Shown: positions 702-39,014 of the stretch, piece by piece | Layout of the letters: each line of letters opens with the position of its first letter | How positions within the stretch are numbered: position 1 is the stretch's first letter | Source of the DNA: a virus | Lineage: Duplodnaviria; Heunggongvirae; Uroviricota; Caudoviricetes | IMG/VR virus record: IMGVR_UViG_2671180460_000015 | Direction: 5' to 3' (one strand) | Length of the DNA stretch: 39,014 nt | Notes under the pieces: generated by a model | Databases searched by the model: none | Told to the model about the DNA's origin: nothing | Seen by the model: the letters and a program-made list of their open reading frames with translations, nothing else | Translations under genes and position numbers: made by a program

Positions 702-3700
702 TATGCAAGCCTCACAATATAGTTAAATGCGATGTTTTTGACGGTGTTTTCCGCGTTACCAGCAGCGTTAACGGTGATGGTGTGTCCATGTGAACCAATC
801 GCAACGGAGTGCGTGTGTGCACCAATACCTACAGTATGTGCGTGTGCACCTGCGCTTGCAGCAGTACCCGATACAGAGTGCGTATGAGCGCCTGCAGAAG
901 AAGTGTTAACACTGTATTTAGAATAATCAGGTGATCCACTTCCCGGAGCACCACTGGAACCACCTGAAACAAATGTCATCGAATGGGTATGTGCACCGGC
1001 TGAAGCAGCCGTACCGCTAACACTATGGGTATGCGCACCAGTGTTATTCGTGGATTTAGTGCCGTAATCAAACGACGATGTGGTTTTCGTCCCCAAATCA
1101 GTACTGGATGCGCTGGCGCTGTGGGTATGCGATTTTATGCCGTCCTGTTCCTGAGACAATACGGCACGACCACTGGCGGGCTTGCCCTTAATCGTCCAGC
1201 CACGCATATCAGGGATCACGCCTGACGGATAAGCGGCTGCAAGTTTCGGGTAGGCAGATTTGTCAAAAGTCTGCCCCTGCATCAGGGCATAACCAGACGG
1301 AACGGTATCTGATGGCCACGGGATTGGTGCGCCGACTGGGTAGCTTTCTGGTGGAAGCTTTTTCGAGGTATAAACTTCTGCCCAGTCTTCCTCAAAACCA
1401 TAACCGTCTCTTGAAGAACGGTAGAACAGACCACCATTTCTGTAATGCGCCTTCATCTGCAAGGTCCGGCAACTTCCGACTCCGGTATAGAAGTTAACCA
1501 GAATATAGCTGTCGCCAGAGCGGGTGACATTGTAAGCGCCTGATTCGGCATTCCAGGGAACGCCACCATCCGCATCGGCATATGTATCCGTTGCCCTTCT
1601 GGCAAAAGCAGCCACATGCGCGGCGGTTAAAGTAATATCTTTGGAACCATCAAACTCAACACCAGAAACCCGTCTTGGCGTTTGCAGCTTTGTTGCTGTT
1701 AATGCATTACCGTTCAAACTTGCGGACAGTTTGGTTCCAATAACCAGTTCGCCGGTTGCGTTATCAATAGCAAACGGTCTTAATGTATTCCAGCCACCAT
1801 AAACATCACCTTGATTGGTAAGCAGCAGGTAAGTTTTAGCGCCATCATTACGCCATAATGCCCCATACTCCCCACCTATCATTCGAATCTGATTACCACC
1901 ACGCGCTACAATTTCGTCTGTGGCAAAAAGTTTTTTGCACGACAAGTTATCGTTAACGATTAACGAATGAGACTCATAAAAACCACGCCCACTCTTAAAA
2001 TCAAGGATAACGTCCGCCGCGATACATTCAGTCGCCGGATTTGTTGCCCCAAACTTATAGGTCGTATCATTAACAACGAGATCAGCACCAGGTGCGGATA
2101 TTGACAGGCCATCTTCGATAAACGCAAAAACAGGGAAAGCAGCGCCATCAACATAGAACACAGAGCGCAAATCATCGCCCTTATTACTCATCATTATTGA
2201 GTGGATGGCTCGTTCATTGTTTTGATATTGCCAGAACATTCCATAAGCATAACGCCCCCTGTCAGTCCAGCCACCAGGCATAACAAATCCGTTAAACTCG
2301 CAGTTATTCATCGGATCGCCTGCGGTTCGCGTTGCCGTGGTGATAATGACCCTTGATGCCAGTTCGCTTACTGAGCCAGCAGAACGCATAACAACAACAG
2401 GGTAATATTTTCCAGATGTTGCACCTGCAGGAGCGTTAACCCGCACATAACGCATACCACGCTTATCAGCAAAGTCTGTTTTACTGACCGCGTTAATGTT
2501 GTTCAGGAAGCGTCCCTTATCGGGTATATCAGCGCCGTTCTGGTCTTTCTGCAGACGTTTCTCTGCATTGTCATAGGCTGCTTTTACTGCCTTTGGCGTT
2601 GCCGCCAGCGTTTCAGACGTGCTGTTGGTCGCGCTGCTGAGCTGTACTATCCCCTTTTTCGTCGTACTTGCATCCTCAAGCGCCACGGCGGATGCAATAT
2701 CCTCTGCCCGTTTAGCTGCTGTCTCGGCGCGCGTTGCCGCGGATTCCGCCGTACTTTTGCTCTGAGCTGCCGCCGTCGCACTGCCAGCTGCCTCTGTCGC
2801 CTTCGTGGATGCCGTCGTGGCGCTGCTCTTCGCTGCTGACGCCTGTCTGGTCGCCTCATCTTTTGAAGCAGACGCAGATGATGCCGATGACGCCGCCGAA
2901 CTGGCGGACGATGCGGCAGCCGTTTTTGAGGATTCTGCGCTGGTTTCCGACGCTTTCGCGTTCGTTTCGGATGTCTTCGCTGCGGAAGCAGACCTCGCTG
3001 CTGCGCTGGCCTGTTCAGTGGCTTCGCCAGCCTTCGTTGTGGCTGTTGAAGCAGACGATGCGGCACTTTCTGCCGATTTTCCGGCGGCGGTGGCACTGGC
3101 TGAGGCCTGCCCGGCACTTGTTGACGCGGCACTGGCAGACGACGCAGCCGCTGTTTTTGAGCCTGCCGCAGCCGAGGCGCTCTGTCCCGCTGCCGTTTCA
3201 GAAGACCCGGCGTTTGTCTCAGACGTCTTTGCCGCCTTCGCGGAATTGCCTGCCGCCGTTGCCGAGGAAGCGGCACTACTGGCGCTTGATGATGCGTTCG
3301 TTTCTGATGATTTCGCTGCCTCTTTTGAGGCCGCCGCATCCCGGGCTGAGGTGGCTGCTTCTGACGCCTTCGTGGTCGCGGCGGATGCAGAAGTGGCTGC
3401 TGATTGTTGTGACGCTGCCGCATTCGTTTCTGACGTTTTCGCCGCACCGGCACTGGTAGCTGCCGCGCTTTTTGAGGACTCTGCAGCAGCAGCACTTTTC
3501 GATGCTTCACTGGCCTTTGTTGATGCCGTTCCTGCGCTGGAAGATGCTGACTGAGCCGACGACGCGGCCTGCCCGGCTGATGTGCTGGCTGCACGTGCTG
3601 AGCCTGCAGCATCAGTCGCATGGGTTGCCGCCTCACGGGCTGATGTGCTGGCATCGCTGGCTGACTTCTTCGCGGCTGCCGTGTTCTGTGCCACCGCGGA

Positions 3701-31039: not shown

Positions 31040-32566
31040 TCAAAAATAAACCTCACCATCAACCATATATTTGAGAGTACTTATCGCCTGCTGGGCGGAT
31101 ATTGTTTTCATTAAAGGATAGTGTTTAAAAACAATGCCATTCATAAAATAGATATCACAGGTTTTATTATCTGTATTGATTATGATTTTTTCGAATGTTT
31201 TATAGGCAAGTGTACGACATAGCTCTCGCCCATTTTTACTGGTTAAGTCAATAGCATGAAAATCACCAAGTGAACTCACCGCTTTACTCTTCAAAGTTTT
31301 TAATGATACAGAAGCCCTTCGTAATTCCTTATCTAATACTCTGATTTTTTCTGCTATAGCGGTAACTTCAGGCGCAACAGATAATGCAGCAATTAAATTA
31401 TTAATTTTCATCTGGAGCTCAATAATTTTCAACTCTAAAGTTTCATTAGCATCTTTCTTGTTTTCAACTGGTTGGATTTTACTACAATTAAAAAGCAACT
31501 CATTAATGATATTATAATCAACCAAATCTCTCTTTATTGATGGCCTGTCACATCGATGCAGTCTTCTCATCGGACAAACATAATAGCCATGCAAACTTCC
31601 AGATACCGCATGAACAATCATGGTATTACCACAAGCCTCGCACTTCATAACTGTTCGAAGTAGATTTATCAACATAGGATTTTTGCTACTATTGCTAATA
31701 CCAAAAGGTGCCAACCGAATTTCCTGCACAGCGTAAAACAAATCATCTGATATGACTCTGGGATAATAGCCAGCGATTTCACTTATTCCTTTACCTCTTG
31801 CACGATATGAAGGTACGCATATACCTATCAGAGCTTTATTCGCTAATAATTTTTCAATTACAGAAGGTCCCCATGCACTTTCTTTTCCTGAGAAATTCTT
31901 TACAGCATGATCATTTAAATACTTGGCTATTGCATTCAATGAGCGCCTTTCCATCCTGAGTTTAAAAATTAGCTCAATAGTTTTCACCCTGTCGGGGTCT
32001 GGAACAAAAGCCGTTCTTTTGTCATCCAATGAGAGCCATCTCGGACAAGACGCCGTCATAATCGTGCCTGACTCCAGTGCATCCTGCCGTTTTTTCTTCC
32101 ATGATAATTTAACCCGACTTGACTTTATCTCGCTTTCTTCATTTGCCCTTTGTGCTATAAGTATGGCTTTTATTAATGAATATGGCTCATTCAATGAGTC
32201 AATATTATAGACTGTATTATCGCAAAGAGTTATAACATCAATACCGTGATTCAAAATCAATTTCAGACGCTCAATCGCTTCACCGACTTTTTCTCTTGAA
32301 AGTCTGTCCAGACTTTCAACTAACAATGTAGTCCCTGGCAATATATAACCATGTTCTATAGCATCTAAAAATTCCGAAAAAGCTCCTGATTGTGCATGCT
32401 TTCCATTGAATGCGCTTAACCCCAAATCTTCATACGTTACGGTATCAAGGTAATAATCACTATTTACCTTTAGCCATTCAGTAATAAGCCTTCTCTGGCG
32501 GTTTAATGAATCACCAGACATCTGACCTGGTGATGAAAATCGCATATATGCTATGGCTTTTTTCAT
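31040..32566 (-). CDS. ybcK: large serine recombinase (resolvase/invertase-type N-terminal catalytic domain), YbcK-like
   Basis: 508 aa; N-terminus MKKAIAYMRFSSPGQMSGDSLNRQRRL... has the serine-recombinase catalytic motif (YxRxS...R); same length and context (next to emrE) as DLP12 ybcK. Confidence 0.85.
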   Translation of the reverse strand: MKKAIAYMRFSSPGQMSGDSLNRQRRLITEWLKVNSDYYLDTVTYEDLGLSAFNGKHAQSGAFSEFLDAIEHGYILPGTTLLVESLDRLSREKVGEAIERLKLILNHGIDVITLCDNTVYNIDSLNEPYSLIKAILIAQRANEESEIKSSRVKLSWKKKRQDALESGTIMTASCPRWLSLDDKRTAFVPDPDRVKTIELIFKLRMERRSLNAIAKYLNDHAVKNFSGKESAWGPSVIEKLLANKALIGICVPSYRARGKGISEIAGYYPRVISDDLFYAVQEIRLAPFGISNSSKNPMLINLLRTVMKCEACGNTMIVHAVSGSLHGYYVCPMRRLHRCDRPSIKRDLVDYNIINELLFNCSKIQPVENKKDANETLELKIIELQMKINNLIAALSVAPEVTAIAEKIRVLDKELRRASVSLKTLKSKAVSSLGDFHAIDLTSKNGRELCRTLAYKTFEKIIINTDNKTCDIYFMNGIVFKHYPLMKTISAQQAISTLKYMVDGEVYF

Positions 32567-33524: not shown

Positions 33525-34222
33525 ACCCTTGCTCCTTTCAGCCCAAACTTAGCTTTGATTTCTGCGATCTTCGCCAGAGCCTGTGCACGATTTAGAGGTC
33601 TACCGCCCATGACAGGAAGTTGTTTTACTGGTTCAGGTATAGCCTCACCACGGTTAATTCGTGCGGTCATACAGGACAGTTCATCGGCAGCCTTGCGCCG
33701 TAATTCCGCGTCAGTCAACGCATTGGCCCGCATGTTCTGATACAGGTTGGTAACCAGCCAGTAGTGCGCGTTTGATTTCCACGGATAAGACTCTGCATCC
33801 GGATACAGCCCGCGCTTCCGGCAATACTCGTAAACCATATCAACCAGCTCGCTGGCGTTTGGCAGCCCAGCGGTAACGGATGCTTCTTCCCGGCACCAGG
33901 CGACAAACTGCCCGGGTGATGGCAGGAATGGTCGATTCTGCCGACGGGCTACGCGCATTCCAGCGTTAACCTGTTCCATTGTGGTGATCCCGTTTTCCCG
34001 GAAAGCCAGAACCCACTGGCGGCGGATTTCGTTCAGTTCATTCTGGTCACGGTTAGCCAGGCTCGCCGGGAAAGTTGCCAGTAACTGGCTGAACACACCG
34101 TTGATGATCTGCGCTACCTGCTGTACCTGTGGCTTTTCGTCGTACTGTTCCGGCATGTTGTTGGCGATCCGGCGCATCTGCTCACAGTCAAAGTTAACCA
34201 TCTGTGCGGCGATGTTTTTCAT
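33521..34222 (-). CDS. P: replication protein P (DnaB helicase loader)
   Basis: 233 aa, MKNIAAQMVNFDCEQMRRIANNMPEQYDEKPQVQQVAQIINGVFSQLLATF...; near-identical to lambda P. Confidence 0.95.
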   Translation of the reverse strand: MKNIAAQMVNFDCEQMRRIANNMPEQYDEKPQVQQVAQIINGVFSQLLATFPASLANRDQNELNEIRRQWVLAFRENGITTMEQVNAGMRVARRQNRPFLPSPGQFVAWCREEASVTAGLPNASELVDMVYEYCRKRGLYPDAESYPWKSNAHYWLVTNLYQNMRANALTDAELRRKAADELSCMTARINRGEAIPEPVKQLPVMGGRPLNRAQALAKIAEIKAKFGLKGARV

Positions 34223-35148
34223 AGCTCCACCCCGTAAATCCAGTCAGTGTTCGTCAGGTCGAGTTTTGGTTTGCCGGCTGTCACGCCAGCCTGTTGCTTG
34301 TTTCGGTTGATTTCGAGCTGGGTCCACTTGTCGCGGAGTTTGGCCGGACTTAGCACGTTACCGGACCAGAAGTTGTCCTGGCATGCCCAGCGGAACAGCA
34401 CGCACATGTCGCGGTGGTTACGTCCGTCACGTTCACGCATCAGGCGGATATCGTTAGCCCACCCTGCAAAATTCGGTTTTCTGGCTGATGGCGCGATGGT
34501 CTTCACCATGTCAAACATCCACTCTGCGGCGGTCAGGTCTTCTGCTGTCCCCCACTTGCTGCCGCTCTGAATTGCAGCATCCGGTTTCACCACAGGAAGA
34601 TCGTTTTCTGGTTGGTCAGAGGATTCGCCAGAATTCTCGGACGAAAAAGGTTTTATATTGTCTTTTGTTAGTTTGTCTTTTGTGTTTACCTGATTCGGGT
34701 AAACGCCTTTACCTGATTTGGGTAAACTTTTTTTACCTGATTCAGGTAAATTTACCTCTTTCAGGTAAACTTTATTTTTCTTACCTGATTCGGGTAATGT
34801 TGACCATTCACTGACCACATTATTAATGCCGATATTCCGCCCGCTCTGAATAAGAATCCCACGCTTTACCAGAACACTTTTTGCAGCAGAACACTTATGC
34901 GGCAATATCCCGGTCAATTCGGAAAGTTGCTCGTTGCTCACCCAATCCAGTTTTTTATTAAAGCCATATGTTTTGCGCATGACAGCCAGGAAGACCAGAA
35001 GCTGGTGCTGTGTTAATCCGGCCAGCATCACAGCTTCCAGCAACTCATTTGCAATGCGCGTATAACCATCATCGAGATCTGCCACGCGCGGCTCCTTTTG
35101 TGCCGCATCCGGCACTGGAAAATTGAATATCTCAGCAGTGTTTGCCAT
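34219..35148 (-). CDS. O: replication initiator O
   Basis: From MANTAEIFNFPV...RVADLDDGY the N-terminus aligns with lambda O; contains the ori iterons. The ORF is open upstream to 35238, where an ATG overlaps the stop of the preceding gene (alternative coupled start). Confidence 0.85.
   Translation of the reverse strand: MANTAEIFNFPVPDAAQKEPRVADLDDGYTRIANELLEAVMLAGLTQHQLLVFLAVMRKTYGFNKKLDWVSNEQLSELTGILPHKCSAAKSVLVKRGILIQSGRNIGINNVVSEWSTLPESGKKNKVYLKEVNLPESGKKSLPKSGKGVYPNQVNTKDKLTKDNIKPFSSENSGESSDQPENDLPVVKPDAAIQSGSKWGTAEDLTAAEWMFDMVKTIAPSARKPNFAGWANDIRLMRERDGRNHRDMCVLFRWACQDNFWSGNVLSPAKLRDKWTQLEINRNKQQAGVTAGKPKLDLTNTDWIYGVEL
34686..34799. repeat. replication origin iterons inside O: five copies of about 18 bp, TACCTGATTCGGGTAAAC-like
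   Basis: Direct repeats tacctgattcgggtaaac, tacctgatttgggtaaac, tacctgattcaggtaaat, tacctctttcaggtaaac, tacctgattcgggtaatg, flanked by an AT-rich tract; encodes the LPESGKK-type linker of O. Confidence 0.8.
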
Positions 35149-35234
35149 AATTCCTCCCGCAATGAGTGCGTTACGATTTGCACCTGAAAGTCGGTTCTGT
35201 TCCAGCAGACCGGCTTTCGCCATTTCTGAACCAG

Positions 35235-35780
35235 TCATATTGCCCCCAGCATGGTGGTGACCATCGCCATCAATGGACCAGCCAGATCCGGGTCCACACG
35301 AAACATCGACACAATGCCTTCACTCATCTCCTTCAGTTTCTGGTGGCGTGGCGCGTTGAGAATGACAGCCTGTTTTGCTTCACTGAGTTCCTTTTCCATT
35401 TCAGCCAGCCGAGCCATGAAGCTATCCTGCTCAACCAGGTGGCCGCGATAGTCCAGCGGTAGTACCGCCAGAATTGCCGGGGTCAGTTCACGCACGTTAT
35501 TTCGGTATTTTTCAGAATCGAATTTGTTATCGAGGAAGCGGAACAGCTTCTGGCGTGCACGGCTGACATCATCAGGGAAATCGATGGTGCCGCCGCCCTG
35601 CTCCCGATACTCATTCACAATGAGTGCGGCAACAACATCCTGATTATCTGCAGCCGACCAGGCGCGGACGGCATCACGGATTTTTTCGTGGCCTGGAGCT
35701 TGTTTTGTTTGAGAACGATTTATCACCGCAGTCGGGCTAAATCCGCTAGTCTGTTGGTATGTAAGTGGTTGCATAGTCAT
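35235..35780 (-). CDS. early regulatory protein at the cII position (possibly a YdaT-like CII analog)
   Basis: 181-aa ORF between cro-like and O on the pR-transcribed strand; does not resemble lambda CII (97 aa). Family assignment is inference from position and vague recall. Confidence 0.6.
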   Translation of the reverse strand: MTMQPLTYQQTSGFSPTAVINRSQTKQAPGHEKIRDAVRAWSAADNQDVVAALIVNEYREQGGGTIDFPDDVSRARQKLFRFLDNKFDSEKYRNNVRELTPAILAVLPLDYRGHLVEQDSFMARLAEMEKELSEAKQAVILNAPRHQKLKEMSEGIVSMFRVDPDLAGPLMAMVTTMLGAI

Positions 35781-35804
35781 TGCCTTATCAGTTAACGCCG
35801 CAGA

Positions 35805-36032
35805 TTAGGCGGCAGAATTACTCGCGTTAAACAATGGTGCGAGGTCGGGACGAATATCTGCTGGTTTAATCTTTCCACCAGTGGCTGAGACAATTTTCAT
35901 TACATAGCGGGCATCAATTCCGCCACCGTGTAGCCAACGCCAAACAGTGGGCTGGGCTACACCGCATAGATCTGCCAGTCGTTTTTGACTACCTGTAATA
36001 CTGATTGCGAGTTGAATGGTTTGATTTGTCAT
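35805..36032 (-). CDS. cro: Cro-like HTH repressor (Cro/YdaS type)
   Basis: 75 aa; helix-turn-helix QKRLADLCGVAQPTVWRW; divergent from cI across an operator region. Confidence 0.8.
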   Translation of the reverse strand: MTNQTIQLAISITGSQKRLADLCGVAQPTVWRWLHGGGIDARYVMKIVSATGGKIKPADIRPDLAPLFNASNSAA

Positions 36033-36142
36033 TATTAATTCCTATTGGTATTACAATGAATAAATAATAGCAATACGTATTAATCATAACAATAGCAAAA
36101 CGTGTTTTGACCATCAATACGCAAGCGTATAAATTAAAACTT
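36033..36142. promoter_or_regulatory. OR region with divergent pR and pRM candidates and AATAGCAA operator motifs
   Basis: Minus-strand pR candidate: -35 TTGTTA (36092-36087), 17-bp spacer, -10 TATTAT (36069-36064). Plus-strand pRM candidate: TTGACC (36107-36112) and TATAAA (36128-36133), placing the start at or near the cI ATG (leaderless, as in lambda). Operator motifs at 36066-36075 and 36091-36100. Confidence 0.6.
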
Positions 36143-36835
36143 ATGAAAAAAGAAACTCTTGCTGATCGCTTAAACCTAGCGATGGAACAATCTGGAATGT
36201 CTCAAGGCGCTCTTGCAAAGGCGTCTGGCGTAGCTCAACCCACAATCTGGAGACTGACAAGCGGCAACGCGCGCGGCTCAACAAAAATTGTTGAAATAGC
36301 TAATGCATTGGGTGTTCGAACAGAGTGGCTCTCATCAGGCATAGGCCCGATGAGAAATGACGGTCAACAATTAGGGAAGCCTACTGCCAACCATCCCAAA
36401 TACTTCAAGATTGACGTTCTTGATATAGAAGTGAGTGCCGGGCCGGGAGTCATCAACCGTGAGTTTGTAGAAGTTCTACGCTCGGTTGAGTACTCGTTTG
36501 ACGATGCTCGTCACATGTTCGATGGTAGGAAGGCAGAAAATATCCGCATCATTAACGTACGCGGTGACAGCATGTCAGGAACGATTGAACCTGGTGATCT
36601 TCTATTCGTTGATATCACGGTTAAATCTTTCGACGGTGATGGTATCTATGCGTTTCTGTACGACGACACAGCCCATGTAAAGCGCCTGCAAATGATGAAG
36701 GATAAGCTGCTGGTTATCTCTGATAACAAAAGCTACTCACCGTGGGACCCGATCGAGAAAGATGAGATGAACCGGGTATTTATCTTCGGGAAAGTTATTG
36801 GGAGCATGCCGCAGACGTATAGGAAGCATGGATAG
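36143..36835 (+). CDS. cI: CI-like prophage repressor (N-terminal HTH plus C-terminal LexA/S24 self-cleavage domain)
   Basis: MKKETLADRLNLAMEQSGMSQGALAKASGVAQPTIWRL... HTH; C-terminal region with GDSMSGTI (S24 peptidase Ser motif) and the catalytic Lys region. The ORF-track TTG start at 36107 is probably spurious. Confidence 0.9.
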   Translation: MKKETLADRLNLAMEQSGMSQGALAKASGVAQPTIWRLTSGNARGSTKIVEIANALGVRTEWLSSGIGPMRNDGQQLGKPTANHPKYFKIDVLDIEVSAGPGVINREFVEVLRSVEYSFDDARHMFDGRKAENIRIINVRGDSMSGTIEPGDLLFVDITVKSFDGDGIYAFLYDDTAHVKRLQMMKDKLLVISDNKSYSPWDPIEKDEMNRVFIFGKVIGSMPQTYRKHG

Positions 36836-36915
36836 TACCAATTAAAAATTATCAACCGGGCATTGTGCTCATTCAGTAAAACAACTTAATTATTCATTTT
36901 AGAATGGAGAACTTA

Positions 36916-37977
36916 ATGGATACTTTAAAATATGAGAAATTCTCTGATTTTGATCACAATGACCCATTTTTTGACTCTTTAAAAAAAGATTATAAAGAGT
37001 TTCCTCTTTGGTTAGAAAAAAAAGCCAGAGAAGGAGAATCAGCTTATGTGCTCTATGATGACAAGCATAAAATCGAAGGTTTTATGTATCTAAAAGAAAA
37101 TGATGATGCAAATGACATTAATCCAGCGCTCCCACCAGGACGTCATCTAAAGATAGGAACATTCAAATTTGAATCTAAAGGCACCCTTCGCGGACAACGA
37201 TTTCTAAAAAAAGCGTTTGACCATGCATTTTCATCAAAATCTGATGATATTTATGTTACTGTTTTCGACAAACACGTCCATCTAATAAAACTTTTCCAAA
37301 CGTACGGATTTTACATTCATGGTGAAAAAGAAACACATAACGGGAAAGAGTTTGTATATGCGAGGTCTTTGCATGAGCCTTATGGTGATATTTTATTAGA
37401 TTACCCTCGAATAATGACATCAAGGGCCAACAAATATTTACTGGCGATTTATCCCGAATATCACACTAGACTATTCCCTGATTCAAAACTTGTAAATGAA
37501 TCACCAGATATTGTCAAAGATATATCCCATGCTAACAGCATTCATAAAATTTACATATGTGGAATGCGTTCTGTGATGGGAATGAAAAGAGGAGATATCA
37601 TTGTCATCTATAGAACCGGAGACAAAAAAGGGCCAGCTCGCTATCGTTCTGTAGCCAGTACATTATGTGTAGTTGAGAGCGTAAAAAATATTTCTGAATT
37701 TTTAAGCGAAGATAGTTTTGTAGACTATTGTATTCGTTTTAGCGTATTTTCTGAAGATGAACTCAGAAAAATCTATAAAGAACGTCGATACCCTTTCATT
37801 ATAAGATTCACATACAATCTGTCTTTGCCAAAGAGACCCAATCGTGCTATTTTAATAGATCATGTGGGGCTAAATGGTTCGCGTGCATTCCGATGGAGTC
37901 ACTTTAAACTCACAAATGAGCAGTTCTTAAAGATCATCGAGTTAGGCAAGATAAATGAAAGTTTTATTATCCATTAA
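36916..37977 (+). CDS. hypothetical 353-aa protein, first gene of the immunity-region accessory operon (rexA position)
   Basis: ORF 36904-37977; GGAG at 36906-36909 sits 6 nt before the second ATG (36916). Strongly AT-rich. No lambda homolog recognised; tentative GNAT-like N-terminal half and PUA-like C-terminal half from motif inspection only. Confidence 0.75.
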   Translation: MDTLKYEKFSDFDHNDPFFDSLKKDYKEFPLWLEKKAREGESAYVLYDDKHKIEGFMYLKENDDANDINPALPPGRHLKIGTFKFESKGTLRGQRFLKKAFDHAFSSKSDDIYVTVFDKHVHLIKLFQTYGFYIHGEKETHNGKEFVYARSLHEPYGDILLDYPRIMTSRANKYLLAIYPEYHTRLFPDSKLVNESPDIVKDISHANSIHKIYICGMRSVMGMKRGDIIVIYRTGDKKGPARYRSVASTLCVVESVKNISEFLSEDSFVDYCIRFSVFSEDELRKIYKERRYPFIIRFTYNLSLPKRPNRAILIDHVGLNGSRAFRWSHFKLTNEQFLKIIELGKINESFIIH

Positions 37978-38332
37978 GCCTGAGTTTGCAGAAAAAATAT
38001 TGAACGGAACAAAGCGGTTCGAGTTTCGTAAAGGTATATTCAAAAATCCGCAAATTAGCACCGTTGTTATTTATGCCACGATGCCATTAGGTAAAGTTGT
38101 TGGTCAATTCCGTATTGAATCAATACTAAGTGACGAACCGGAATCTCTTTGGAAAAAGACGGAAAAACACGCAGGTATTTCTAAGCAATTTTATGACTCA
38201 TATTATTCAGGTAGAGAAAAGGCCTACGCAATAAAAATTGGTGAAGTGGAAAGATATAAAGAACCAATTCCTATCTCTGCTCTAGGTAGTAATATTAAGC
38301 CACCACAATCATATCTTTACCTACCTGCGTAA
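37955..38332 (+). CDS. ASCH/PUA-like domain protein (125 aa), second gene of the immunity-region accessory operon (rexB position)
   Basis: MKVLLSIKPEFAEKILNGTKRFEFRKG... carries the ASCH G-x-K-x-x-E-x-R signature; start overlaps the upstream gene by 23 nt; AT-rich. Confidence 0.75.
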   Translation: MKVLLSIKPEFAEKILNGTKRFEFRKGIFKNPQISTVVIYATMPLGKVVGQFRIESILSDEPESLWKKTEKHAGISKQFYDSYYSGREKAYAIKIGEVERYKEPIPISALGSNIKPPQSYLYLPA

Positions 38333-38336
38333 GAAT

Positions 38337-38363
38337 CCCGGCCACCGTGCCGGGTTTTCTTTT
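38337..38363 (+). terminator. rho-independent terminator ending the cI-distal accessory operon
   Basis: CCCGGC-caccgt-GCCGGG hairpin followed by TTTTCTTTT, 5 nt after the stop codon. Confidence 0.7.
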
Positions 38364-38444
38364 GTCCCCTCATCACACAAACCGTTCGAAAAACCACCAC
38401 ATCCTCCCTTCAGTTATCGCTATGCGATGCAAGTCACAAAATTA

Positions 38445-38535
38445 ATTCTTTTTGCTATCAAACAGTTAATATCAAAACACATTAATCAATAGCAATAAGT
38501 ATTGATACAGCCAATAGCAATAGCTATTATCACCA
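38445..38535 (+). promoter_or_regulatory. OL/pL region: near-consensus sigma-70 promoter with AATAGCAA operator motifs
   Basis: -35 TTGATA (38502-38507), 17-bp spacer, -10 TATTAT (38525-38530) on the + strand. Operator motif aatagcaata at 38488-38497 and 38513-38522, and inverted (tttgctatc) at 38451-38460. Confidence 0.6.
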
Positions 38536-38603
38536 TGTCGCAACAACACAACGATACGGCAATCACCTGATTCACCGTTGCGATGACCGCTTAGATCCGC
38601 AGC

Positions 38604-39014
38604 TTGAATTTCAGCAGGCTCCGGGGAGTGCGAGGGGTGAAGCGGACGCGTGAACGTCGGTGTGACCAGCTGAAATCAACTCAACACTTCATACCTCAGT
38701 CGCTTCAACGAGGCGGCTTAGTTATGACAACCGGCGGCCATCCACCGCCTGAATACGCGCAGAAGTCTCTATATGTTCAGCAGCCCAGCTTACGGGCAGG
38801 AGTTTTTATGGTTCATCAACATTACGGAACGCAGACCGTTAATCGAGGTGCGGTCATGCCAGGAATGCTGGTCAAACACAAAGATGGTACCTGGACTGCA
38901 TCAGCTAATTTACGCGGACGGCTTTATCTGCATCGCGGCATCGAGCGCACTTATACCCGTGATTTGCTCGTGGAAGTTTTTCTCGACGGACGCGGTAACG
39001 GCCTGAATCACTAA
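38604..39014 (+). CDS. hypothetical early protein at the N position (first gene downstream of the candidate pL); start uncertain
   Basis: Open frame from a TTG at 38604; alternative starts are a GTG at 38634 and the ATG at 38722. An Arg-rich stretch KRTRERR near the N-terminus loosely resembles the lambda N arginine-rich motif, but the rest is unlike N. Confidence 0.4.
   Translation: MNFSRLRGVRGVKRTRERRCDQLKSTQHFIPQSLQRGGLVMTTGGHPPPEYAQKSLYVQQPSLRAGVFMVHQHYGTQTVNRGAVMPGMLVKHKDGTWTASANLRGRLYLHRGIERTYTRDLLVEVFLDGRGNGLNH

Follow-up and report, generated by a model that had tools for sequence, protein, structure and literature searches.

Among well-characterised phage RNAs, put is, to our knowledge, alone in having been shown to render Escherichia coli RNA polymerase terminator-resistant unaided. 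It acts via the zinc-binding domain of the beta' subunit without protein factors, and is carried by HK022 (putL and putR) and, as a putL-like RNA, by HK639, both lambdoid phages without N. The locus described here lies at the right end (38364–39014) of a 39,014-nt viral DNA stretch (IMG/VR record IMGVR_UViG_2671180460_000015), referred to as the window, which represents a lambdoid phage or prophage with late genes on the minus strand. This region is read as the beginning of the early-left (pL) operon in a lambdoid phage without N, with kil as the first real gene and, in the leader ahead of it, a conserved structured RNA, the W element, as a candidate put-like cis-acting antiterminator. Taken as a whole, with the antitermination role included, the explanation is given an even chance, and its parts differ in strength.

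The putative pL is a sigma-70-like promoter, and its position upstream agrees with the earlier note made from the DNA sequence, which had placed a possible antiterminator gene downstream of a pL-like promoter. Two copies of the operator-like motif CAATAGCAATA surround it (38487–38498 and 38512–38523), and three more are located in the cI–cro intergenic region (36042–36101). Since the motif is common to both regions, the promoter is interpreted as the repressor-controlled early-left pL. The transcript would begin near 38537 and carry a 270-nt leader before kil. The promoter/operator stretch differs between relatives of different immunity types, and the leader downstream does not. Among 76 distinct leader relatives gathered from viral contigs, 38571–38750 is nearly invariant while the operators vary, representing three or more immunity types. 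In these relatives, many scattered substitutions occur in the kil coding sequence (codon positions unclassified), the leader being more conserved.

Twenty-eight distinct W sequences align without gaps over the 100 nt of the element (alignment A2). Diverged copies were obtained from scans that excluded the window type, in several viral contig types and in Trabulsiella guamensis, Enterobacter intestinihominis, and Scandinavium hiltneri. RNAalifold applied to A2 returned the helices P1 and P2 and a short P0, and a manual model made before the RNAalifold run had given the same P1 and P2. In total, 97.2% of the alignment cells are paired, with 22 double-change cells; none of 500 shuffles reached the observed pairing score, and slid registers dropped to 18–41% paired. 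Both-sided changes were found at three P1 pairs (GC to AU; AU to CG or GU; GC to AU) and at one P2 pair (AU to GC), and the pair 38642/38661 occurs as GU, AU, and GC. The unpaired mismatch position 38621 is free to vary (C, U, A), and in one metagenome variant the G.G mismatch of P2 is changed to U.G. In all four main W types, the same architecture is the minimum-free-energy (MFE) fold of the type itself. The secondary structure of W is backed by covariation, and it is quite probable that W is a functional structured RNA. Two further helices were considered. In the long-range pairing of the P1 loop with the 3' part of W, no changes beyond wobble-compatible ones were seen and several of the end pairs were broken, leaving it as a possibility, and the competing RNAalifold helix 38633–38638/38665–38671, with three disruptions, gained no support.

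The two hairpins are joined by the invariant G-rich linker GGGGAGUGCGAGGGGUG, which contains two Shine-Dalgarno (SD)-like motifs followed by GUG. In three element types, including that of locus L096, this GUG reads GUG-UAA, a minimal start-stop open reading frame (ORF). The SD-like motifs of the linker may matter for ribosome loading or for transcription-translation coupling.

The covariance model of W found one convincing copy in the window (128 bits) and none in HK022, HK639, phi80, ENT1, or KO-TP1. Of 5426 complete E. coli genomes, 2210 contain W, as a rule in one copy and without annotation, and W is single-copy in the complete genome of phage 4A7. An Rfam search of 38300–39014 with E-values up to 10 returned nothing relevant. 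The HK639 putL was undetected by Rfam as well, which indicates that Rfam holds no put model. W is a widespread, conserved, structured leader RNA that was hitherto unannotated and is absent from Rfam. It starts about 45–75 nt past a repressor-type promoter in every W-bearing leader type read, and about 45 nt past the predicted transcription start in the window. Two weaker model matches on the minus strand, obtained with filters off, were judged to be chance: one at 3295–3374 (24 bits, rough E-value 2.5e-5) keeps a P2-like part without P1 and lies in the structural-gene region, and the other, at 32255–32333 (14 bits), lies inside a recombinase coding sequence.

The location of W connects it with put. 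The HK639 record annotates a "putL-like antiterminator RNA" after pL. When HK639 was aligned with four W-bearing leaders (L096, L263, Trabulsiella, and Enterobacter; alignment A3), the left flank was near-identical over about 57 nt and the right flank over about 40 nt, and the middle portion of about 100 nt was putL in HK639 and W in the others. Judged from this alignment, W and putL appear to be a clean cassette exchange between shared flanks. In 219 loci bearing the conserved island that follows W in the window (see below), the upstream leader has W, put, or a phi80-type module with UGCUUUUUAACAA, never together. The motif UGCUUUUUAACAA departs at a single position from the E. coli rrn boxA core UGCUCUUUA, which was derived from PMC3177189, where the Aquifex aeolicus boxA is given and E. 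coli differs at positions 1, 6, and 9. Of the three interchangeable modules, two, put and the boxA type, are recognised as signals for antitermination. Locus L096 has GCCGCCTAACTGGCGGC-CTTTTT and AACCCGCTCAGGCGGGTT-TTTT, both strong intrinsic terminators, placed after W and ahead of kil/gam/recT, and by inspection no N-like ORF was seen among the listed ORFs of this locus. In phage 4A7, terminator-like sites precede xis/int within the pL operon, and no N is named among its 70 annotated genes, in an annotation style that does name lambda N.

Because W occupies the putL slot, is exclusive with put and the boxA module, has terminators downstream, and occurs without N, it is proposed as the early-left antitermination determinant. 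W shares several features with put: both are elements of about 70–100 nt with two stem-loops in the early-left leader soon after pL, in lambdoid phages without N and upstream of intrinsic terminators, and, as for the single W, only the left-operon copy (putL) is annotated in HK639. By analogy with HK022 and HK639 put RNA, W would act in cis on the RNA polymerase transcribing it and create a terminator-resistant elongation complex. The modified polymerase would read through the intrinsic terminators of the pL operon and reach the recombination and xis/int genes. The earlier note had suggested that early antitermination here may use a different mechanism, possibly put-RNA-like. This idea survives in modified form, as a structured RNA in the putL position of HK639-like leaders, although the HK022-type put itself, which the note had suggested looking for, was found in the leader neither by nhmmer nor by a covariance model.

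The context of W inclines the balance slightly towards its being an antitermination determinant of some kind. Put-like cis action would be the most economical mechanism, and that W works in this manner without a dedicated protein, presumably by direct binding of RNA polymerase, is a reasonable but tentative proposal. An equally tentative one is that W, being unrelated to put in structure, represents a second class of RNA antiterminators that modify the polymerase ("put-II") and replaces N and put in many enterobacterial lambdoid prophages. An all-against-all ORF comparison of 16 W-bearing loci found only ordinary cII-like, O, repressor, and Kil/Gam/RecT genes in common, and no co-occurring protein partner of W beyond these. 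A literature search on N-less lambdoid antitermination returned nothing useful.

Several observations weigh against put-like antitermination by W. Firstly, W shares neither sequence nor structural likeness with put. A covariance model built from 11 putL/putR sequences (R1) matched nothing in either early operon of the window, its best match being a partial one in a tail gene (E-value 0.047), and nhmmer found no HK022-type put in the window. The W hairpins are 17 nt of invariant G-rich linker apart, whereas put has a near-contiguous V shape, and the put hallmark motifs GAACGGC...CGGCAAU do not occur in W. Secondly, the folding energy of W is not better than that of shuffles (z from +0.28 to −1.27 for the four types), and folding of the whole leader was likewise uninformative (z = −0.79). 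As the folding energies are ordinary, the support for the structure comes from covariation. W diversity is low (about five sequence types; effective sequence number 1.08 in the model), so that the covariation rests on perhaps four to five independent events, and scans of genome and metagenome collections added few new types (those of Trabulsiella, Enterobacter, and Scandinavium) and the one P2 variant. A blastn search of the leader against phage genomes returned only 16 close relatives. Thirdly, the window-type phage has its first clear terminators only about 2.3 kb past W, with no canonical terminator between W and kil and just the non-canonical island hairpins right after W. Fourthly, HK022 has a putR copy in its pR operon, whereas the window has no second W copy downstream of pR (covariance model; Smith-Waterman scores at shuffle level), nor were W, put, or N found on its pR side. 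Given this and a terminator-like 11-bp hairpin followed by GUUUUAUGCU after the ren-side genes (32790–32765, minus strand), W alone cannot explain how transcription reaches Q. Finally, the slot shared with put could reflect a recombination-prone joint instead of a shared function, and a trans-acting protein partner of W is possible.

Such a partner is central to another explanation, in which W is a nut-like site whose boxA-like CGCUUAGA and P1 recruit Nus factors and/or a phage protein encoded elsewhere, which modifies RNA polymerase. Like the lambda N/nut system, W is promoter-proximal in the pL transcript, has a weak boxA-like octamer directly 5' of a hairpin, resembling boxA-spacer-boxB, and encodes an Arg-rich peptide in one frame. 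The octamer had been pointed out in the earlier note and is indeed present (CGCTTAGA, 38588–38595), sharing five of eight positions with lambda boxA CGCTCTTA. The phi80-type leader (phi80, KO-TP1, and ENT1) likewise speaks for a nut-like site. It has the same island as the window, with HP1, the MTTGGHPP start, and HP2, and the same 5' leader scaffold as the L096-type W phages, but in the place of W it carries the near-consensus boxA-like UGCUUUUUAACAA, one position off the rrn core, and a long conserved leader. However, CGCUUAGA matches lambda CGCUCUUA at 5/8 positions and the E. coli rrn core at only about 3/9, and the P1 loop of 8–14 nt is unlike the GNRA-like boxB pentaloop. No GNRA-type boxB was seen in the leader, and the Arg-rich frame is not conserved. 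The gap between cro and the cII-like gene is only about 24 nt (35780–35805), leaving no room for a nutR/tR1 arrangement, and no nutR counterpart exists. Complete W-bearing phages have no annotated N-like gene, and W loci of different types share only the ordinary cII/O/repressor families. Nus-only (rrn-type) complexes mainly counter Rho, yet strong intrinsic terminators lie downstream of W. A nut-like W is, on these grounds, considered unlikely. Phi80-type leaders with UGCUUUUUAACAA in the put/W slot, followed by the long conserved leader, were located in L004 (phi80, 2270–2345), L006 (2345–2420), and L005 (approximately 1993–2100). The ORF annotated as "N" in phi80 is swapped for unrelated ORFs in KO-TP1 and ENT1, which suggests that the phi80 "N" may not be a conserved antitermination component.

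W might alternatively be a structured 5'-untranslated region (UTR) element with no part in antitermination, serving transcript stabilisation or processing, as a ribosome-loading or start-stop site (SD-like GGGGAG/GAGGGG before GUG 38637), as a small-RNA precursor, or in the control of the toxic kil. The location of W just 5' of kil in the window type, the invariant linker with its two SD-like motifs and GUG (GUG-UAA in other types), the unremarkable folding energy, and the absence of a pR-side copy would all fit such a role. In the L096, L354, and L356 types, however, W and kil are separated by about 2 kb with several genes and two terminators, so W is not a kil-specific regulator. Nor would an unrelated UTR function lead one to expect that W takes the exact place of put within identical flanks, or that it never occurs with put or the boxA module. 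Such a function is regarded as improbable, to about the same degree as a nut-like site.

If put-like antitermination by W is correct, a second RNA class with an unrelated fold would perform the same job as put, and a comparison of the two would reveal what an RNA really requires in order to reprogram the polymerase. The early-left leader would be a slot for interchangeable antitermination cassettes (put, W, and the boxA module). Prophages with W occur in about 40% of the E. coli with complete sequences, including O157:H7, and W would explain the expression of recombination, excision, and kil functions after induction in N-less prophages, including those of O157:H7 and O26.

The gene that follows the leader had been described differently. 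The earlier note reported an ORF in the slot of the N antiterminator and considered it a possible alternative antiterminator with an Arg-rich N-terminus. The ORF is real, running from TTG 38604 to a stop codon (39012–39014) that ends on the last base of the window and encoding 136 aa. It fills the N slot in a mechanical sense only; as a gene it does not, being a read-through of leader RNA elements into kil. Its only homology is to Kil/KilR, inhibitors that block FtsZ ring formation and cause filamentation, unrelated to antitermination: PHROGs family phrog_294 ("Kil protein for bacterial septation inhibition") matches residues 60–136 with an E-value of 2e-38. Homology of this kind is what the note itself had named as refuting its idea, and the proposed Arg-rich antiterminator protein is rejected accordingly. 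A start codon overlooked in the note, ATG 38808, is preceded by AGGAG, and the predicted 68-aa product from this start aligns end to end with phrog_294 (residues 1–68, E-value 1.3e-37). Residues 1–68 also align with positions 1–70 of 73 of the NCBIfam profile NF008465 ("FtsZ inhibitor protein", Rac KilR family; E-value 1.8e-17), and since this alignment begins at residue 1, the N-terminus of the family coincides with Met 38808. At 63 bits, the NF008465 score falls short of the curated cut-off of 92 bits, so the window Kil is a relative of Rac KilR outside its subfamily. RefSeq lists the same 68-aa protein for phage 4A7 and for a prophage of O157:H7 that shares the immunity region, and in both kil is followed by gam, bet/recT, and exo, a position before gam/bet/exo as in lambdoid early-left operons. 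The Kil of lambda itself has 47 aa and is unrelated in size.

Outside the Kil part, the ORF resembles nothing. As the note had stated, there is no significant likeness to lambda N (best BLASTP E-value 0.13, over an unrelated stretch), and BLASTP against the phi80 "N" gave an E-value of 0.026 inside the Kil part, which is not significant either. A Pfam search of the ORF had no match, and residues 12–68 matched no PHROGs family. The Nun-like alternative raised in the note found no backing, PHROGs having returned only Kil for the ORF, although no direct pairwise comparison with Nun was made. Of the start codons the note listed, TTG 38604 is correct; GTG 38634 is not, the in-frame GTGs being at 38628 and 38637, and ATG 38722 lies in another frame, whose translation ran into stop codons, the in-frame ATG being at 38724.

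The stretch KRTRERR, in which the note saw a resemblance to an arginine-rich RNA-binding motif, is encoded as reported. Its codons, with GTG before and TGT after them, form a hairpin with arm CGGACG, loop CGUGAA, and arm CGUCGG (38642–38661), which is P2. The stretch is Arg-rich because CGN hairpin arms translate as Arg, and KRTRERR is a by-product of RNA structure and no arginine-rich motif. Sister element types, in which the hairpin differs in sequence, read GTG-TAA in this frame, or GTG-AAG-CGG-ACG-TGA with TGA after four codons.

It might nevertheless be argued that the long ORF is genuine, encoding an N-terminally extended Kil or a bifunctional protein with an RNA-binding Arg-rich N-terminus like N or Nun. 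The frame is open in 60 of the 76 unique close relatives, GGGGAG lies 8 nt 5' of GTG 38637, and a long "Kil" is annotated in some GenBank records. The relatives are 90–99% identical, however, so an open frame is expected by descent. In about 14 of the 76, indels or stops break the upstream frame (examples being 5 nt inserted after 38676, 2 nt lost at 38761–38762, and single-base insertions), and the kil start and frame are intact there. Further objections are the immediate stops in the sister types, the lack of any family match, including N, for the extension, the start of the Kil family profile at Met 38808, and the Arg codons accounted for by the hairpin arms CGGACG/CGUCGG. The change of 38642 from G to A is silent in the frame, and it also turns a P2 pair from GU into AU, which explains it equally well. 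An extended or bifunctional Kil is thus very improbable, and it is held with high confidence that kil is the real gene and the long ORF an artefact; the 270-nt leader is merely open in the kil frame in this phage, giving the 136-codon ORF. Long or misplaced "Kil" ORFs covering W and the island also occur in L358 (3805–4011), L359 (3804–4190), and phages Perceval and PhiR26_1. Such long calls in GenBank phage records, which swallow the leader, are a recurrent annotation error that the present delimitation of kil and leader corrects.

Downstream of W lies the conserved island, the only part that the window shares with phi80, ENT1, and KO-TP1. Its first hairpin, HP1, was found in 36 unique variants, among which the 5' arm takes 21 forms; all variants fold into hairpins of about 7–11 bp, with a mean MFE of −9.6 kcal/mol versus −3.7 kcal/mol for shuffles. 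AUG 38724 opens a short MTTGGHPP frame, the continuation of which differs between phages; this start explains the ATG of the earlier note. In phi80, KO-TP1, HK639, and L096, the island is directly 3' of a strong tL1-like terminator, and the HK639 record marks HP2 as a terminator. The window type lacks this terminator together with the genes that precede it, and has W directly next to the island. The island may serve in weak termination, as a processing site, or in translational control. Many lambdoid phages whose antitermination systems differ likewise have it ahead of the kil region (L004 3001–3058; L006 3001–3088; L233 8105–8175, minus strand). An Rfam isrK match at L233 8181–8267 (minus strand, HK639 terminator and island; 17 bits, E-value 0.7) is far below the gathering score and probably noise, and isrK did not match the island of the window itself.

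Table 1. Coordinates of the early-left leader, kil, and the neighbouring immunity region in the window.
Feature	Position	Strand	Remarks
pL-like promoter	38502–38530 (with operators 38487–38530)	+	TTGATA-17-TATTAT; sigma-70-like, 10/12 promoter match
5'-terminal hairpin of pL transcript	38537–38555	+	GUCG-caacaacacaa-CGAU; first helix of MFE fold
W element	38582–38681	+	Conserved structured leader RNA, ~100 nt; alignment, covariance model; proposed cis-acting antiterminator
W helix P0	38588–38590/38630–38632		Short closing helix
W helix P1	38597–38606/38615–38624		C.C mismatch 38600/38621
W G-rich linker	38623–38642		Invariant; between P1 and P2
W helix P2	38642–38648/38655–38661		G.G mismatch 38644/38659
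W loop-to-3' pairing	38608–38615/38669–38676		Possible
136-codon ORF	38604–39014	+	Leader RNA elements in frame with kil; not one gene
KRTRERR codons	38640–38660	+	AAG CGG ACG CGT GAA CGT CGG; both arms and loop of P2
Island	38690–38749	+	CAUACC, HP1, AUG 38724, HP2
HP1	38698–38718		9-bp hairpin AGUCGCUUC-aac-GAGGCGGCU; lower stem covaries extensively
HP2	38733–38749		GGCGG-ccaucca-CCGCC
SD sequence of kil	38798–38802	+	AGGAG, 5 nt before ATG 38808
kil	38808–39014	+	68 aa; predicted Kil/KilR-family FtsZ (septation) inhibitor; PHROGs, NCBIfam
O	34219–35238	-	
cII-like	35235–35780	-	
cro-like	35805–36032	-	
cI-like	36107–36835	+	
357-aa protein	36904–37977	+	No Pfam or NCBIfam match
ASCH-domain protein	37955–38332	+	125 aa; overlaps the 357-aa gene
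Intrinsic terminator	38337–38364	+	Stem CCCGGC/GCCGGG, 6 G-C pairs, then TTTTCTTTTG

The ORF region is 99% identical to phages 4A7 and Lambda_4C10 (genus Bievrevirus) and 90–98% identical to about 12 other coliphages. The genes of the immunity region are listed in Table 1. Between cI and pL, in a rexAB-like moron position, the 357-aa gene and the ASCH-domain gene form a pair (36904–38332, plus strand) with its own terminator, which closes the cI-side moron genes and insulates pL from upstream transcription. The record of PhiR47_2 (PV340567) names this pair "GevT toxin / GevA antitoxin", and no paper on it turned up in the literature collection searched.

All pL leader types examined open with a short hairpin with a CA-rich loop (aacaacacaa, gacaacaca, or aacgaaaca). 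Judged by eye, the stems vary: GUCG/CGAU in the window, AUCGC/GCGAU in L355, CCAUCGC/GCGAUGG in L362, and UCGA/UCGA in the HK639/phi80 type (leaders L096 and L233). This hairpin may stabilise the 5' end of the transcript. At the other end of the window, the only Rfam match at gathering threshold in the whole window is a full-length RF02111 (IS009) at 160–358 on the minus strand, with 228 bits against a gathering score of 117.

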